DNA of 58,242 bases from an uncultured Gammaproteobacteria bacterium (GTDB lineage: Bacteria; Patescibacteriota; Microgenomatia; JAMCZE01), in assembly GCA_964431075.1 (NCBI GenBank), contig CAYSID010000002.1, positions 1 to 58,242 on the forward strand. The letters run 5' to 3'. The notes below the pieces were generated by a model. The model was not told the DNA's origin. It saw only the letters and a list, made by a program, of their open reading frames with translations, and made no database searches. Positions 15,502-22,705 of this stretch are shown here, in pieces (position 1 is the stretch's first letter; each line of letters starts with the position of its first letter). Both the position numbers and the translations under genes were made by a program.

Positions 15502-16584
15502 ATGGCGACTTTAACAGAAACGGCCTATTACACCAGAAAAGGCGTCAAAATTTTTATTGCCGCGATTATTGGCATTGTGGTTTTAAAAATTTTGTATGGC
15601 GTCGGCGTTCAGATTTGGCTTGCCTGGTTTCCTCCTCCGCCGCCGCCAGCTACCATGGCTTTTGGCCTTTTACCGAAAATTAAGTTTCCCAAAACAAATA
15701 TCTCCACCATGTCTGCCAGATTTACCTACCATCTGGAAACTGTTGACGGCAAATTACCGGCATTTCCGCAGAACTTACGGGTTTATTTTATTCCCAAGCC
15801 GGGTTCTTCGTTTGGGAAGGACGAACGAATGACGGCTCAAGCGGCCCAGCTTGGTTTTTTGGAAACGCCGGAGAAGATTTTTGGGACAACTGACAGTTGG
15901 CGCTTTAACGACCCGGTTTTGCCCTTGCGCCATTTGGAATACGACGCCACCACCAACCATTTTAAAGTCTTTTACGACTATCGGTTTGATTTAAACCTTT
16001 TTTCCGATAAAAGTTTTGCCTCCCAAGCCGAGATAGAAATCCAAGCCCGGGATTTTTTCGATGAGCTCGGACTTGAGTATCCGGATTTGGCGACGGGGTC
16101 AGTTAAAACCCGTTATTTTAAATTGGCCACCACAACTTTAGTTCCGACAACATCCCTGTTTGAAGCTGACGCCGTCTTGGTAAATCTTAACAGAGCCGCC
16201 ATTGTTGAGGGAAAGCTTATCTTTCCCGTGGTTGGCGCCGACCCTAATAAAACTAATGTTTCCGTTTTATTTTCCGGGTCTTTGGATAAGAGCAAGAAAA
16301 TTCTTGAGGCCAATTTTAATTACTCGGTCGTGGATTACGAAAACTATGCAACCTATCCGTCTCTGTCCGCGCAGGCGGCTTACGAGATGCTCGGCAGAGG
16401 TCAGGCTTTTGTCGCCTCGGTTCCGGCGGGAAATCCAAGGACTATAGCTGTTAGGCGGGTGGAAATTGGTTACTATGACGACCCGGAGGTTCAGAATTAT
16501 CTTCAACCGGTGGTGATTTTTTCTGACGGAAAAGGATTCACTGCCTATGTTCCCGCAGTCAGTCCAAGTCTTTTTGCTCCGTAA
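15502..16584 (+). CDS. membrane-anchored hypothetical protein
   Basis: 360 aa. N-terminal TM followed by a PPPPPP linker. No recognisable domain. Confidence 0.6.
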   Translation: MATLTETAYYTRKGVKIFIAAIIGIVVLKILYGVGVQIWLAWFPPPPPPATMAFGLLPKIKFPKTNISTMSARFTYHLETVDGKLPAFPQNLRVYFIPKPGSSFGKDERMTAQAAQLGFLETPEKIFGTTDSWRFNDPVLPLRHLEYDATTNHFKVFYDYRFDLNLFSDKSFASQAEIEIQARDFFDELGLEYPDLATGSVKTRYFKLATTTLVPTTSLFEADAVLVNLNRAAIVEGKLIFPVVGADPNKTNVSVLFSGSLDKSKKILEANFNYSVVDYENYATYPSLSAQAAYEMLGRGQAFVASVPAGNPRTIAVRRVEIGYYDDPEVQNYLQPVVIFSDGKGFTAYVPAVSPSLFAP

Positions 16585-17527
16585 GGCGAAAGTTTATAAA
16601 TCCCCAATTTAACAGGGCCGAAGCTTCCCCGAAACGGTCACGGCTGTTCAAAATCACAACCATTATTTTTCGCCTGTTTCTCTCAGCGGTGACTGCAAGA
16701 CATTGCCCCGCCAATTCTGTGTAGCCGGTTTTAACTCCATAGGTTCCCCAGTAAGAGGTAAGCAATTGATTAATGTTTTGTAAGGGGTAGCGGTGCAGGC
16801 CGGAAATGTCAAAGCTTAAGAACCAGTTGGTTTTGACAATTTGGGAAAGTAAGGGGTTCTCCAGGGCGGCCTTGGCCAAGAGAATTAGGTCGGCAACAGA
16901 GGAATAATGATCATCCCCGTCACGTCCGCTGGGGTTATTAAAATGGGTATGAAACATGTGCAGTTTGGCCGCCTTTTTGTTCATTGAGTTAATAAATTGT
17001 TCAAAACCGCCGGAAATATTATCCGCAAGGACAAAAGCAGCGTCATTTCCGGACGGCAACAACAGACCGTAAAGTAAATTTTTTACCGTCATTTGGTCGC
17101 CAAGTTTTAATCCCATTTTGGAGTCGCCGGAGATAATAACCAATTTACTGACGGTAATAATGTCATCGGGTTGGTAATAATCGAGAGCGACCAGAGCGGT
17201 CATGAGTTTGGTAAGGGAAGCCGGGCGCAATCTCTGATTGATATTTTTTTGAAACAACGGCACACCGGAGTTTAAATCAATTACCGCCGCGGCCGAAGCA
17301 GTCAGAAGCGGCGGCAAAACACCGGTTACTTTTACCGGATAAGGCGACGGGATAAAGTTGTCATAAGCGCTGGTTCTGACTTGCGGAGGGAAATATTTTA
17401 ACTGTAAAGTTTGATAATAATCCTGCCCCGGGAGCATGAAGAAAAATAACGCCGCTAGTCCCACCCCGATCCCTTGCCAAATTGTCAACCCCTTTTTAAT
17501 AATTTTATGTCTTTTATTCTTCTTCAC
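16559..17527 (-). CDS. D-alanyl-D-alanine carboxypeptidase (peptidase S11, low-MW PBP)
   Basis: SxxK (ASLTKLMT), SxN (SGND) and KTG (KTGYT) motifs with an N-terminal TM anchor. Confidence 0.88.
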   Translation of the reverse strand: MKKNKRHKIIKKGLTIWQGIGVGLAALFFFMLPGQDYYQTLQLKYFPPQVRTSAYDNFIPSPYPVKVTGVLPPLLTASAAAVIDLNSGVPLFQKNINQRLRPASLTKLMTALVALDYYQPDDIITVSKLVIISGDSKMGLKLGDQMTVKNLLYGLLLPSGNDAAFVLADNISGGFEQFINSMNKKAAKLHMFHTHFNNPSGRDGDDHYSSVADLILLAKAALENPLLSQIVKTNWFLSFDISGLHRYPLQNINQLLTSYWGTYGVKTGYTELAGQCLAVTAERNRRKIMVVILNSRDRFGEASALLNWGFINFRLTEQKDLD

Positions 17528-17569
17528 AAAATTATTTTACCTTAATTTGGGAATTTTTGGCGTTGAAGG

Positions 17570-17578
17570 TGGTATACT
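17570..17578 (+). promoter_or_regulatory. extended -10 promoter (TGgTATACT) for the downstream tRNA-like gene
   Basis: TGG + TATACT at 17570-17578. The predicted start, about 7 nt downstream, coincides with the first base-paired nucleotides of the tRNA-like RNA. Confidence 0.45.
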
Positions 17579-17586
17579 AATTTTGC

Positions 17587-17660
17587 ATGGGTCGCATCGG
17601 TATGGCTTCTAGTTTGTCAAGCTGGGTAGCGGGGGTTCGACTCCCCACGGGTCCATGCCA
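17587..17660 (+). tRNA. tRNA-Asp(GUC)-like gene with a non-canonical D-arm/T-stem geometry
   Basis: Canonical elements: anticodon arm CTAGT-TTGTCAA-GCTGG (17609-17625, anticodon GTC at 17616-17618); T loop TTCGACT flanked by GGGGG/CCCC; a 7-bp acceptor pairing ATGGGTC (17587-17593) with GGTCCAT (17650-17656), followed by G + CCA. Aberrant elements: the D region is only 15 nt (mini hairpin GCAT-CGGT-ATG), and the T stem needs a sixth base pair plus a bulged A. It may be a pseudogene. Confidence 0.4.
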
Positions 17661-17744
17661 CATTTAGCACTTGACAAGCGGGGAGAATTTTGCTAGCATA
17701 GTTTTGCTTGGCAAGCTAAGTCCGTACTGGTGTTACCCACTATG

Positions 17745-17765
17745 TCCCGCATCGGCGGGATTTTT
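17745..17765 (+). terminator. intrinsic terminator (TCCCGC-ATCG-GCGGGA + TTTTT)
   Basis: GC-rich 6-bp hairpin followed by a T5 run on the + strand only. It lies between the tRNA-like gene and the 3' end of aspS. Confidence 0.6.
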
Positions 17766-17789
17766 GGTGATCCAGTATTTTCCCTTAAT

Positions 17790-19121
17790 TTATGAAGTTT
17801 TCGGTGAAGACAGCCGTCCGTCAATTCGCTCCATATCCCTTGGAAACATTGACGCCTCACGGATGTTTGAGAGCCCTAAAATATGCATAGTAATTCTTTC
17901 TGCTCCGAAAGCAAAACCACCAAGCGGTGGCATGCCATACTTAAAACCTTGCAAGTACAAATCTATCTTTTTTACGTCGATTCCCCATTCTTCGGCGTGA
18001 GCCACTAAAGTTTGATAGTTATTAATTCGTCGTCCTCCAGTCATCCATTCAGCTCCACGGCCAATTAAATCAAAACCCTGATTAAATTCTGGATTTTCAT
18101 CATCTGGATAAGTGTAAAAGGGTCTAGTTTTTGTTGGGTAATGTGAAATAAAAACAAGGTCGGAACCGTGGTTTTCTAGCGCCCAACGACAAATTTCTCT
18201 TTCGTCTTCTGGATCGGGATCCTTTTCCAGACGATGGTCTCGCCCCGTTCTTTCAAAAATTATTTGCTGCGCATCACGAAGTTTGACGGATGGAATTTTG
18301 TCAGCTACTTTGGGGATAGTTGCTCCGTACATTTCCAACTCCTTTGCACACTTGTTTTTCACTTCAGACAAAATGTATTTAATAACATATTCGGCCATGT
18401 CTCGAACTTCGATCCAATCTCTAATGAAACCGAATTCACAATCAAGACTGGTGGCTTCTGTTATGTGTCTCGTAGTCACACTTGGTTCTGCTCGGTAGAT
18501 TTGATTAACACTAAAAACGCGTTCGAACGAACTAACGAGTAATGATTTATACAATTGCGGGCTCTGAGAAAGAAACGCCTTATTCTCAAAATATTTAACT
18601 TCAAATACTTCTGTCCCCCCTTCGGGTATCGCGGGAATTATTCCCGGGGCCTGAAATTCCAGAAAATCTTTTTCTAAAAGAGCTCTTCTAAAAGCATCAA
18701 TAACCACTCCTTGGACTCTAAAAATGGCTTGAACTTTTGGATGTCTTAATGTTAACCCCCGAAAATCAAGGAGGGTAGGGAGTTCTAAATCCAAATCAGG
18801 TTTTCCCATATCAAAGGGATAGACCTCTGATTTGGCTAAAACCTCAATTTTTTTTGCCTCCATTTCCACCGTCCCGGTTAACAATTTTTTATTTACAAGT
18901 TTTTCTGGGCGTTTTTTGATTAATCCTTCGACGGTAATTGCGTCGCCGGTTTTTATATCGCCGGCAATATCAGAAGAAACTACAACTTGAAGCGTTGCTG
19001 TGTAATCAGAAATATCAAGAAAAACAATTTTTCCATGATCCCGTCTGACCATGACGCGACCTTTTATGAATACTTCTTCTCCTTCATTATTTATTGTATT
19101 ATTGATTAATGTTCTGTCCAT
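17790..19121 (-). CDS. aspS: aspartate--tRNA ligase, short archaeal/eukaryal-type (AspRS2-like)
   Basis: 443 aa. N-terminal OB fold and a class II core with the LSQSPQLYK motif diagnostic of AspRS, plus GGFAFGAERI (motif 3). Its leader carries an Asp-specific T-box. Confidence 0.9.
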   Translation of the reverse strand: MDRTLINNTINNEGEEVFIKGRVMVRRDHGKIVFLDISDYTATLQVVVSSDIAGDIKTGDAITVEGLIKKRPEKLVNKKLLTGTVEMEAKKIEVLAKSEVYPFDMGKPDLDLELPTLLDFRGLTLRHPKVQAIFRVQGVVIDAFRRALLEKDFLEFQAPGIIPAIPEGGTEVFEVKYFENKAFLSQSPQLYKSLLVSSFERVFSVNQIYRAEPSVTTRHITEATSLDCEFGFIRDWIEVRDMAEYVIKYILSEVKNKCAKELEMYGATIPKVADKIPSVKLRDAQQIIFERTGRDHRLEKDPDPEDEREICRWALENHGSDLVFISHYPTKTRPFYTYPDDENPEFNQGFDLIGRGAEWMTGGRRINNYQTLVAHAEEWGIDVKKIDLYLQGFKYGMPPLGGFAFGAERITMHILGLSNIREASMFPRDMERIDGRLSSPKTS

Positions 19122-19245
19122 ATATTTACTTTAACACAAAAAAACCGTCCCTGTGTATTAGGACGGAATTACCGTGGTGCCACCTAACTTGCTTCTTAAT
19201 TTCTATGGATCAGCTCCGGTTTGTCAGACCATCATTGCCTTAATC
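19122..19245 (-). promoter_or_regulatory. T-box riboswitch leader (Asp specifier GAC) with terminator/antiterminator
   Basis: Minus strand reads ...GGTCTGACAAACCGG...AAGTTAGGTGGCACCACGGTAATTCCGTCCTAATACACAGGGACGGTTTTTTT. Antiterminator: helix A1 TTAGG/CCTAA, 7-nt bulge TGGCACC (consensus UGGNACC), helix A2 ACGG/CCGT. Competing terminator: CCGTCC-N10-GGACGG + T7 (19138-19166). GAC followed by A sits at 19225-19222. Confidence 0.85.
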
Positions 19246-19453
19246 TTAATATACCCCTTGACAGATATGGTGTCAAGCCATTAAAATACGGTCATCATGT
19301 TGAGATCTTGTTATCACAACCTCTTTATTATTACCTCCGTCCGATGGACGGCGGTTTAAGGTGGGAGGTTTAACAAGAATAGATAAAAATTAAAAATTTA
19401 AAATTTAAAATTAAAAATTTACAAGAACCTCCCAAACAAAGGGAGGATTTTTT

Positions 19454-19654
19454 ATGAAAAAAAAAGAAAAACTTGATCCATACAAAATAATTAAAGACGA
19501 ACTAGGTTTTGATCGTTCAGTGGTGCAATTATGGGGAGTTGGAGCCTTATTAAAAGCGGCAATGGCAAAACGTGGGAATGAGGCAGTTACTCGTTGCGAT
19601 GCAGATTCAAGAGATGGAACGGCAATAGAGGAACTGTTGAAAGACTACTTGTGA
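19454..19654 (+). CDS. small hypothetical protein (66 aa)
   Basis: Strong RBS GGGAGGA 7 nt upstream of the ATG. No recognisable motif. Confidence 0.45.
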   Translation: MKKKEKLDPYKIIKDELGFDRSVVQLWGVGALLKAAMAKRGNEAVTRCDADSRDGTAIEELLKDYL

Positions 19655-21412: not shown

Positions 21413-22705
21413 ATGGATGTTATTAAAAGACTAAAGGATGCCGGGTTTGAAGGATATTTAGTTGGCGGTGCGGTTCGGGATATGTTGTTGAATCGGCCAA
21501 CAAAAGATTGGGACTACGCAACTAATGCCCCGCCAGACAAAATTCAGGAAATTTTTCCCGAGGCGAATTACGATAACGCCTTCGGGACGGTTTCAATTGT
21601 CACAGACGAAGGCTTATTTGAAATTACTCCGTTTCGCAAAGAGGGGAAATATTCTGACGGGCGGCATCCGGATACGGTGATTTGGGCGAATACTCTTGAA
21701 GAAGACCTTGCGCGGCGTGAGTTAACAATAAGCGCCATGGCGTTTGATGGGAAAACTATTATTGACCCCTATCATGGTCGGGAAGATTTAAAAAATCGAA
21801 TTGTGAGAGCAGTCGGTACACCGGATGATAGATATAAAGAAGATGCTTTAAGAATGATAAGGGCGGTTCGCATTGCAACCCAATTAGGATTGGTCATTGA
21901 GGAAAAAACTTTTGCGGCTATAAAAACTAATGCCAAACTTTTGGAAAAAATTTCCGGGGAGCGGATCCGTGACGAGTTGGAGAAAATTTTAGTTTCTGAT
22001 TTTCCAGCCGACGGCATAAGATTATTATTGAATGCCGGTTTATTACAAATAATTTTTCCGGAGTTGACCCGGGGGGCGGATATGAAACAACCCGGTCATC
22101 ACATCTATGATGTCTTGACTCACTCGATTAAATCTTTGGAGGCTTGCCAAAATAAAAACTGGATTGTTCGTCTCGCCGCGTTGCTCCACGACGTCGGCAA
22201 ACCGGCGACTTATAAATTACGCGACGGTAAACCAACTTATTATTCTCATGAAACCGTTGGAGCGGCCATCGCCCGGGATATTGCTAACAGGTTGCATTTT
22301 AAAAAAGAAGATCGGGAAAAATTGTGGACGCTGGTTCGCTGGCACATGTTTTCGGTTTCGGAATTTATAACCGATGCGGCGGTGCGTCGGTTTATCCGGC
22401 GGGTAGGGGCGGAAAACACCACCGACATGCTGGATGTGCGAACCGCCGACCGGGTGGGGAGCGGGACTCCCGCCACCTCCTGGCGCCACGAGGATTTTAA
22501 ACGTCGGATTATCAAAGTCCAACAGCACATTCCTTCCGTCAACGATCTCGCCGTTGACGGCACCGATGTCATGAAAATTCTTAGCATTCCTCCCGGACCA
22601 AAAATTGGTAAAGTATTAAAAATATTATTTGATGAAATCATGGAGGATATTAGTAAAAATAATAGGGAGTATTTATTAAAAAGGGTTTCTTCAATGTCAT
22701 CCTGA
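21413..22705 (+). CDS. cca: CCA-adding tRNA nucleotidyltransferase with C-terminal HD domain
   Basis: YLVGGAVRD head motif, DWDY, and RRELTISAMA. The HD domain carries HHIYDVLTH...LLHDVGK. Confidence 0.92.
   Translation: MDVIKRLKDAGFEGYLVGGAVRDMLLNRPTKDWDYATNAPPDKIQEIFPEANYDNAFGTVSIVTDEGLFEITPFRKEGKYSDGRHPDTVIWANTLEEDLARRELTISAMAFDGKTIIDPYHGREDLKNRIVRAVGTPDDRYKEDALRMIRAVRIATQLGLVIEEKTFAAIKTNAKLLEKISGERIRDELEKILVSDFPADGIRLLLNAGLLQIIFPELTRGADMKQPGHHIYDVLTHSIKSLEACQNKNWIVRLAALLHDVGKPATYKLRDGKPTYYSHETVGAAIARDIANRLHFKKEDREKLWTLVRWHMFSVSEFITDAAVRRFIRRVGAENTTDMLDVRTADRVGSGTPATSWRHEDFKRRIIKVQQHIPSVNDLAVDGTDVMKILSIPPGPKIGKVLKILFDEIMEDISKNNREYLLKRVSSMSS

Follow-up and report, generated by a model that had tools for sequence, protein, structure and literature searches.

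A putative cassette of a tRNA-like RNA and its antisense partner between aspS and a dacA-like gene of an ultra-small bacterium

We analysed a contig of 58,242 nucleotides (contig C2, the whole of which we call the window) from the genome of an ultra-small bacterium, 871 kb in 60 contigs and 98% complete, and describe a candidate unit of two small RNAs on its plus strand. The unit, a cassette of ~207 bp at 17569-17775, lies between aspS, which encodes a non-discriminating-type AspRS (17790-19121, minus strand; NF003483, 427 bits against a cut-off of 353), and a gene for a dacA-like carboxypeptidase (16559-17527, minus strand); gltX, recJ and a gene for a CCA-adding enzyme (21413-22705) are further neighbours. 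From left to right it comprises a candidate promoter P1, a tRNA-like RNA (RNA 1), a second candidate promoter P2, a predicted antisense RNA (RNA II) and a terminator. A preliminary description had seen the first half and read it as a promoter-equipped, non-canonical tRNA-Asp(GUC)-like gene beside a T-box-controlled aspS, or else as a 5'-truncated tRNA fragment; the second half, RNA II at ~17706-17766, was absent from it.

RNA 1 occupies 17585-17659 of the plus strand and is predicted to form a linker-free four-helix junction, recognised by covariance model R2 (66.9 bits) and supported by covariation. Its closing helix pairs 17585-17594 with 17648-17658, leaving G17649 bulged, and encloses a D-like mini hairpin, CAT-CGGT-ATG (17595-17604), an arm (17605-17630) and a T arm (17631-17647). 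Several elements of the preliminary description hold. The loop UUGUCAA lies at 17614-17620 atop a 5-bp stem, the T loop TTCGACT (17636-17642) is carried by a GGGG/CCCC stem, and the mini D hairpin, here with a CGGT loop, is a conserved feature of a family of such RNAs. The proposed 7-bp acceptor, 17587-17593 with 17650-17656, does pair, but these bases are the middle of the closing helix and were misread as the acceptor. The acceptor marks fall at 17589 (G1), 17591:17652 (G3:U70) and 17655 (A73); the discriminator, given earlier as G73 followed by CCA, is thus A17655 and is A in 22 of 22 members, and 17657-17660 consists of helix and spacer, where other members have YRCC. Nucleotides 17626-17630, taken earlier for a 4-5-nt variable loop, form the 3' base of the 26-nt arm. 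The T stem, described as 6 bp with a bulged A, has the standard length of 5 bp and carries a G:A mismatch in this copy.

The family was assembled by comparison. BLASTN across 61 genomes returned one true homologue, in genome G002, at 73% identity. A two-sequence covariance model then recovered eight similarly built loci, spread over five genomes of the taxonomic family. Members scored 36-112 bits; real tRNAs, which reached 39, fell far short of most members and overlapped only with the two weakest. Models R1 and R2 together gave 14 loci in 11 related genomes. Across 151 genomes of the class, R2 produced 12 matches of at least 64 bits in nine genomes, the next match scoring 44.2 bits, and in 150 other genomes of the phylum it produced none at E <= 1e-7. 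A further eight distinct members of the cassette type came from scanning species genomes with a pattern, which brought the family to 22 distinct loci. In the common build four helices meet without linkers: the closing helix (9-14 bp), a hairpin of 3 bp whose tetraloop bears GG, the 26-nt arm and a 5-bp T arm.

Covariation supports all four helices. In a MAFFT alignment of eight loci, 93.7% of cells are paired, against 28-52% when partners are slid; both sides have changed in 17 of 30 pairs, which none of 500 shuffles matches, a count that is not a probability given that the aligned rows are related. In the 22-member alignment 93.8% of cells are paired and both sides have changed in 21 of 28 pairs, figures biased towards the model's structure by the fitting of this alignment to the model. 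The pairs G3:U70, U-1:A73 and G7-C66 are kept in every one of the 22 members. On these sequence comparisons, RNA 1 is a promoter-equipped, structurally non-canonical tRNA-like gene and no chance resemblance, as the preliminary description had proposed in its more general claim; its alternative of a 5'-truncated fragment or integration scar fails on the covariation of the four helices.

The resemblance is to alanine tRNA. G3:U70 with A73 is what we take to be the alanine identity set, and these marks (a 7-bp acceptor with G3:U70, and A73) occur family-wide, the window copy having six acceptor pairs and a bulge. The acceptor and the T arm come close to identity with those of the family's tRNA-Ala(GGC), with 31 of 32 positions the same in a manual count of the G015 copy against the G009 tRNA. 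The remainder is less tRNA-like: A73 pairs with U-1 in the primary transcript, RNA 1 does not encode CCA, the D element has 3 bp and 4 nt, the 'variable loop' is paired, and the U8/N9 and N26 linkers are absent. The arm loop falls into at least four types by subgroup (YUGUCAA, UUGAUAMC, CUAAGAAU and CUUGCCAG), all of which have a U where tRNAs have U33.

The promoter and terminator motifs are conserved with the RNA. P1, at 17570-17578 on the plus strand, is the extended -10 element TGgTATACT already recognised in the preliminary description; it has no -35, ends 6 nt before the first paired base of RNA 1 (17585) and has a predicted start near 17585. Among the 22 members, the strict form TGnTAnnnT is present in 11, a -10-like hexamer in ten more (TGnGATAAT in five of these, by eye) and neither in one; a scan for two-hexamer promoters did not report P1. 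P2, at 17671-17699 on the plus strand, consists of TTGACA, a 17-nt spacer and TAGCAT with TG preceding the -10 (10 of 12 matches). In the 14 loci from related genomes the architecture is identical: TTGACA of P2 always lies ~12 nt 3' of the closing helix, TAnnnT follows it at exactly 17 nt in 13, and then comes a stretch of 60-75 nt, which holds RNA II (~65 nt) and is closed by an intrinsic terminator. In the window, RNA II has predicted ends at 17706-17766 on the plus strand, with its terminator hairpin at 17744-17761 followed by a T run. We infer that RNA 1 and RNA II are both transcribed.

RNA II is complementary to the RNA that precedes it. In the window its antisense part (17705-17740) faces 17587-17623, the 5' half of RNA 1, in a predicted duplex of 32 bp (6 G:U) at -46.7 kcal/mol, compared with a mean of -22.4 for shuffled RNA II. 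Across 21 members, one degenerate copy (G004b) being left out, the first part of RNA II is complementary to the arm of the cognate RNA 1, at a mean of -31.5 kcal/mol, against -16.5 +/- 5.5 kcal/mol for the arm with other members' RNA II. The cognate RNA II ranked first in 16 of the 21 and among the top three in all. Beyond the arm, the complementarity continues across the D-like hairpin and into the 5' strand of the acceptor; its length is 30-38 bp in 19 of 21, the other two duplexes being shortened by sequence extraction, and the partner sequence tracks the loop type across subgroups. The pairing is thus extended, cognate-specific and covarying, as is generally expected of an antisense pair. 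In total the duplexes hold 590 Watson-Crick pairs and 107 G:U pairs; single mismatches comprise 8 C:A, 5 G:G, 1 A:C and 3 others. A repeat kept at the DNA level should show G:T and A:C about equally, so the large excess of G:U over C:A and A:C points to selection on the plus-strand RNA.

The cassette is an insertion relative to its neighbourhood. In the two closest relatives examined, G013, whose AspRS is 74% identical, and G001, of the same genus, aspS directly precedes the dacA-like gene, with 8-27 nt from the aspS stop to the GTG start of the dacA-like gene; in the window this distance is 262 nt. An imperfect direct repeat of 34-36 nt flanks 17569-17775, with 29 of 34 aligned positions identical and a 2-nt gap; its local alignment score is 20, compared with a maximum of 14 over 500 shuffles. 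The repeat consists of the aspS 3' end and the old spacer: the right copy (17776-17809) contains the aspS stop codon (17790-17792) and the last codons, and the left copy (17533-17568) is a diverged duplicate of the aspS 3' end and the aspS-dacA spacer. We infer that the cassette is mobile. Its left end is the P1 promoter itself, and copying from the P1 transcript is therefore disfavoured.

Elsewhere the cassette lives mostly inside protein genes. Nine of the 14 loci lie within long open reading frames (ORFs) of the complementary strand, to which they add ~67 codons free of stops. Two of them occupy a shared loop position in orthologous membrane proteins of G015 and G004, which belong to two genera; the orthologues in G009 (same genus as G015) and G013 are without the 67-codon insert. 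Two others lie between intein blocks B and F and two just past block A (blocks located by eye), the match to the Pfam family Intein_splicing exceeding the cut-off in three of these four hosts and falling below it in the fourth. Scanning metagenomes with the pattern of one subgroup, other than the window's own, yielded 64 loci with 49 distinct cores, and P2 spacing is exact in 45 of the 64. Wherever a TTGAxA box is present (55 of these loci), the locus pairs with the 60 nt downstream at <= -35 kcal/mol. The antisense frame is open in 34 of 44 distinct complete modules, against 2.1 expected after shuffling, and the sense frame in only six. The open frames use two registers, in 24 and 10 modules, which give different peptides (GVEPGR and GPEGNRTP).

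Two occurrences in such settings are of note. The window's own genome carries a second cassette, of another loop type, at G000:C19:9536-9612 (L076:1514-1590; 84.7 bits), antisense in the mini-intein of a 969-residue ORF, where it lies between blocks B and F (Pfam Intein_splicing, 59.6 bits). On one metagenome contig of 3,038 bases, two cassettes in the same orientation (L214 and L215) lie 1.9 kb apart with the antisense frame open across each; this is possibly one large protein with two occupied inteins.

We consider it likely that 17569-17775 is one copy of a ~200-bp self-contained cassette of two small RNAs, an antisense-controlled tRNA mimic that behaves as a selfish-like insertion. This reading builds on the structure of RNA 1, the cognate complementarity, the conservation of promoter and terminator motifs and the insertion polymorphism, all of which the comparisons show. 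In the proposed mechanism, P1 at the left edge would drive RNA 1, a 75-80-nt mimic derived from alanine tRNA, whose 7-bp acceptor (G3:U70, A73) would be extended by leader-trailer pairing and joined to the T arm, a 3-bp D-like hairpin offering GG and a ~10-bp arm with an anticodon-like loop. The near-consensus P2, ~12 nt past RNA 1, would drive RNA II, which would end at the cassette terminator. The 5' end of RNA II would dock on the arm loop, and pairing would proceed through the arm and the D-like hairpin to the acceptor 5' strand, unfolding RNA 1 into a long duplex and presumably inhibiting it; by analogy with other antisense systems, RNase III might cleave this duplex. The apparent GUC anticodon would then be a nucleation loop for RNA II pairing and not a decoding anticodon. 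U-turn loops of natural antisense systems hasten pairing, which may be a lead for the U kept in the arm loop. The invariance of the alanine marks suggests that AlaRS or another tRNA-handling enzyme may recognise free RNA 1. The cassette has a patchy distribution in a single class of ultra-small bacteria, where it mostly occupies protein genes, antisense to them and in frame; here it has inserted between aspS and the dacA-like gene.

Several observations weigh against this reading, in addition to the two limits on the alignments given above. The fold of the single 76-nt sequence is ordinary (z = -0.92; 34 of 200 shuffles are equally stable), and with single-sequence evidence this weak it is the comparative evidence alone that leads us to take the feature as real. 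The window copy is the weakest of the family, with its bulged G, 6-bp acceptor, mismatched T stem and low R2 score; no antisense frame spans it, and it may be decaying. In a read-through transcript from P1 the cloverleaf is predicted to give way to the long-range duplex (-72 to -82 kcal/mol), and the tRNA shape may therefore be transient. As to mobility, the other 13 loci have no significant flanking repeat, inspection of the termini by eye revealed no terminal inverted repeats (the inverted repeat lies inside the cassette), genomes carry only one or two copies, no protein gene is associated with the cassette, and viral contigs gave no match in a scan that used the pattern of one subgroup, not the window's. 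The site shared by G015 and G004 could reflect old inheritance followed by loss. No RNA run covering window positions 17000-18400 was found, the only run that covers them being one of DNA, possibly from the source sample, and RNA starts, ends and processing are predicted.

The stability of the long duplex also raises the question of whether the unit is simply a hairpin element: one long imperfect inverted repeat, akin to a miniature inverted-repeat transposable element (MITE) or a Rickettsia palindromic element (RPE), whose transcript or single-stranded DNA forms a stem of ~35 bp and whose tRNA likeness is ancestral and without present role. Its repeat arms of ~40 nt each, the standing of the long-range duplex as the minimum-energy fold of the full P1 transcript and the resemblance of the cassette to in-frame selfish DNA are what such an element would lead one to expect. 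We nevertheless regard it as unlikely. Outside the repeat lie the T arm and the 3' sides of both the closing helix and the arm, yet all of these covary with their cloverleaf partners; the invariant G:U and A73 would be useless in a plain hairpin; a consensus promoter stands between the repeat arms at 14 of 14 loci; and the 107 G:U pairs against 9 C:A or A:C mismatches disfavour a repeat kept at the DNA level. The same G:U excess disfavours an invertible promoter between the repeat arms. With both the cloverleaf and the long duplex under selection, we read the unit as a two-state pair.

A more specific version of our preferred reading, that of an antisense-controlled mimic, would make the cassette an RNA-only addiction module. 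Free RNA 1 would be an alanine-accepting mimic that either misinserts alanine at GUC, GAU or AAG codons, according to its loop type, or poisons ribosome rescue as a transfer-messenger RNA (tmRNA) head lacking its message, and RNA II, with the stronger promoter, would mask its loop and 5' half. We offer this as a long shot. If it were true, loss or silencing of the cassette would harm the cell, and a 200-bp element lacking any protein would thereby persist in essential genes and inteins.

The aspartate reading of the preliminary description is largely refuted, and we now judge it very unlikely. It would make RNA 1 a working non-canonical tRNA-Asp with G73 and encoded CCA, or a tRNA-Asp decoy acting on the T-box leader of aspS. 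The window copy does carry the UUGUCAA loop with GCCA 3' of the helix, a YUGUCAA loop is found in at least six members (by reading), and ARAGORN calls the G002 homologue a 70-nt tRNA-Asp(gtc). That call is the only one among the first eight members; at the window locus ARAGORN and Rfam at gathering report nothing, RF00005 has no match at E up to 10 and no Rfam family matches RNA 1, both programs giving only the same three tRNAs elsewhere in the window. A canonical tRNA-Asp(GUC) with G73 is present in the genome (G000:C7:14536-14611), its sequence unrelated to the RNA at 17585-17659, and a copy of this resident tRNA is ruled out. The preliminary description had held that such a tRNA, together with a lack of conservation, would make the locus a pseudogene; the tRNA exists, but the locus is strongly conserved and covarying. 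The aspartate identity itself does not survive: YUGUCAA is confined to one subgroup, GUC is not conserved, the other loop types are not those of Asp, and the family has G3:U70 with A73.

The link to aspS fares no better. GCCA occurs only in the window copy, the adjacency to aspS arises from the insertion, absent in G013 and G001, and the G002 homologue lies among pilin-like genes. The aspS leader (19135-19304, minus strand) may be a short-stem-I T-box with an Asp specifier. A permissive Rfam search over 17300-19600 matched a T-box weakly, at 24.6 bits against a gathering score of 93 (19156-19304, minus strand). The leader contains TTGACA (19276-19271), 17 nt and TATATT (19253-19248), a promoter motif that falls within the part Rfam aligned as the T-box 5' region. 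Further downstream come a short hairpin with the loop CUGACAA, bearing GAC at 19225-19223 followed by A, and a T-box core with UGGC (19182-19179), both placed by eye, and then a terminator.

Two other readings have little left to stand on. That the locus is a dead tRNA gene or the attachment-site scar of an integrated element, as its duplicated flanking target sequence and the near identity of acceptor and T arm to tRNA-Ala(GGC) might suggest, is extremely unlikely given that both halves are present, that compensatory change keeps all helices across 22 loci, that promoter, partner RNA and terminator are conserved, and that the resident tRNA-Asp is dissimilar. It is scarcely credible, for all the in-frame read-through in 34 of 44 metagenome modules and nine of 14 genomic loci, that selection acts on a ~67-residue peptide added to hosts by the antisense strand with the RNA features as by-products, since two registers give different peptides, copies lacking an open antisense frame (the window, G013) keep all RNA features, and variation is compensatory at the RNA level.

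Among known RNAs, the head of tmRNA is close to RNA 1. G3:U70 and A73 are common to both, as is the stacking of the 7-bp acceptor on a T arm of 5 bp capped by a T loop; the D arm is shortened and offers GG, and the RNA 1 arm sits at the position of tmRNA helix P2. The tmRNA model gives a weak local match of 15.1 bits at 17601-17647 in the permissive search and 23-42 bits on seven of ten related loci, against a gathering score of 47. RNA 1 (75 nt) differs in having no mRNA-like domain, pseudoknots or tag frame, in its paired leader and trailer and in its dedicated antisense partner. A tmRNA or two-piece tmRNA was ruled out by the full tmRNA beside smpB in the same genome (G000:C6:23511-23896; Rfam, 99.6 bits), which the ARAGORN genome scan missed and Rfam picked up. 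RNA II as the trans message of a split tmRNA was also rejected, as on reading of the duplexes its body exits at the junction side and not the loop side.

We also observed 'solo' tRNA-Ala-like cores with the mini D hairpin GGCAGGTTYGC (L126, L137, L127, L140, L136, L130, L169, L205, L191, L209, L210, L193 and L200), in assemblies titled Chloroflexi, Limnocylindria, Gaiellaceae, Acidobacteriota, Alphaproteobacteria and Adlerbacteria; the L137 genome (G302) is marked unpublished. Most have neither P2 nor an antisense partner within 300 nt, L169 being marginal, and two encode CCA. The Rfam tmRNA model, run on L126, L137, L127, L140, L136 and L130, scored five at 32-42 bits as a head without message and gave nothing for L127 at E <= 0.01. 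R2 found one match in each of four of five solo-core genomes and none in G306 (L136). ORFs for IS1, IS1595 or DDE-type transposases adjoin three solo cores, and a fourth by eye. Separately, several of the species-representative, cassette-bearing assemblies of L124, L128, L131, L132, L134, L138 and L141 are titled 'uncultured Gammaproteobacteria'; these titles look wrong because the loci are identical to loci of the window's small-genome relatives.

By analogy, the cassette would work most like the antisense-controlled small RNAs C4, hok/sok and ColE1. With hok/sok (type I) and RNA-only (type VIII) toxin-antitoxin systems and ColE1 RNA I/RNA II it shares a short antisense RNA that has a strong promoter and contacts, by its unpaired 5' end, a target loop with a U33-like U, together with a long duplex and orthogonal pair specificities. 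In contrast to them, the cassette RNAs derive from an inverted duplication on one strand and not from opposite strands. Unlike in hok/sok, no toxin ORF was identified in the cassette, RNA 1 and the P1 transcript not having been scanned systematically for small ORFs. C4 is matured by a tRNA-processing enzyme and targets an mRNA, controlling downstream genes. RNA 1 is likewise small and structured, with its pairing target encoded downstream of it on one strand, but that target is an independent small RNA that has a promoter to itself, and no gene follows it in the window. A review lists C4, an antisense RNA found in phages P1 and P7, among the substrates of RNase P (PMC11143913).

The second group of relatives is defined by habitat. 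RPEs and bacterial MITEs are described as in-frame insertions in genes (PMC1779305, PMC10969869, PMC5896051). Like them, the cassette is a short insertion lacking protein, tolerated in ORFs and read through as an extra peptide, with a patchy distribution, and its in-frame residence is clear. It differs in having one or two copies per genome, not tens, and in its two promoters, terminator and four-helix tRNA mimic; no terminal inverted repeats were seen by eye, and a fixed short target duplication is lacking, with a significant flanking repeat at one of 14 loci. Full-text literature searches returned no description of such an element, and this two-RNA cassette of ultra-small bacteria is apparently undescribed so far.

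If our reading is correct, the false tRNA-Asp and the false link to aspS regulation would be removed from the window. Annotators would have to reckon with nested RNA genes that can hide in long ORFs of these genomes. Ultra-small bacteria of the candidate phyla radiation would carry an undescribed kind of ~200-bp element that has no protein of its own and consists of two promoters, a tRNA-Ala mimic, an antisense RNA and a terminator. RNA 1 would be a natural tRNA mimic with invariant alanine marks and with an 'anticodon' whose loop is used for RNA-RNA docking, and the cassette as a whole would be a compact system joining tRNA mimicry, antisense control and selfish persistence.
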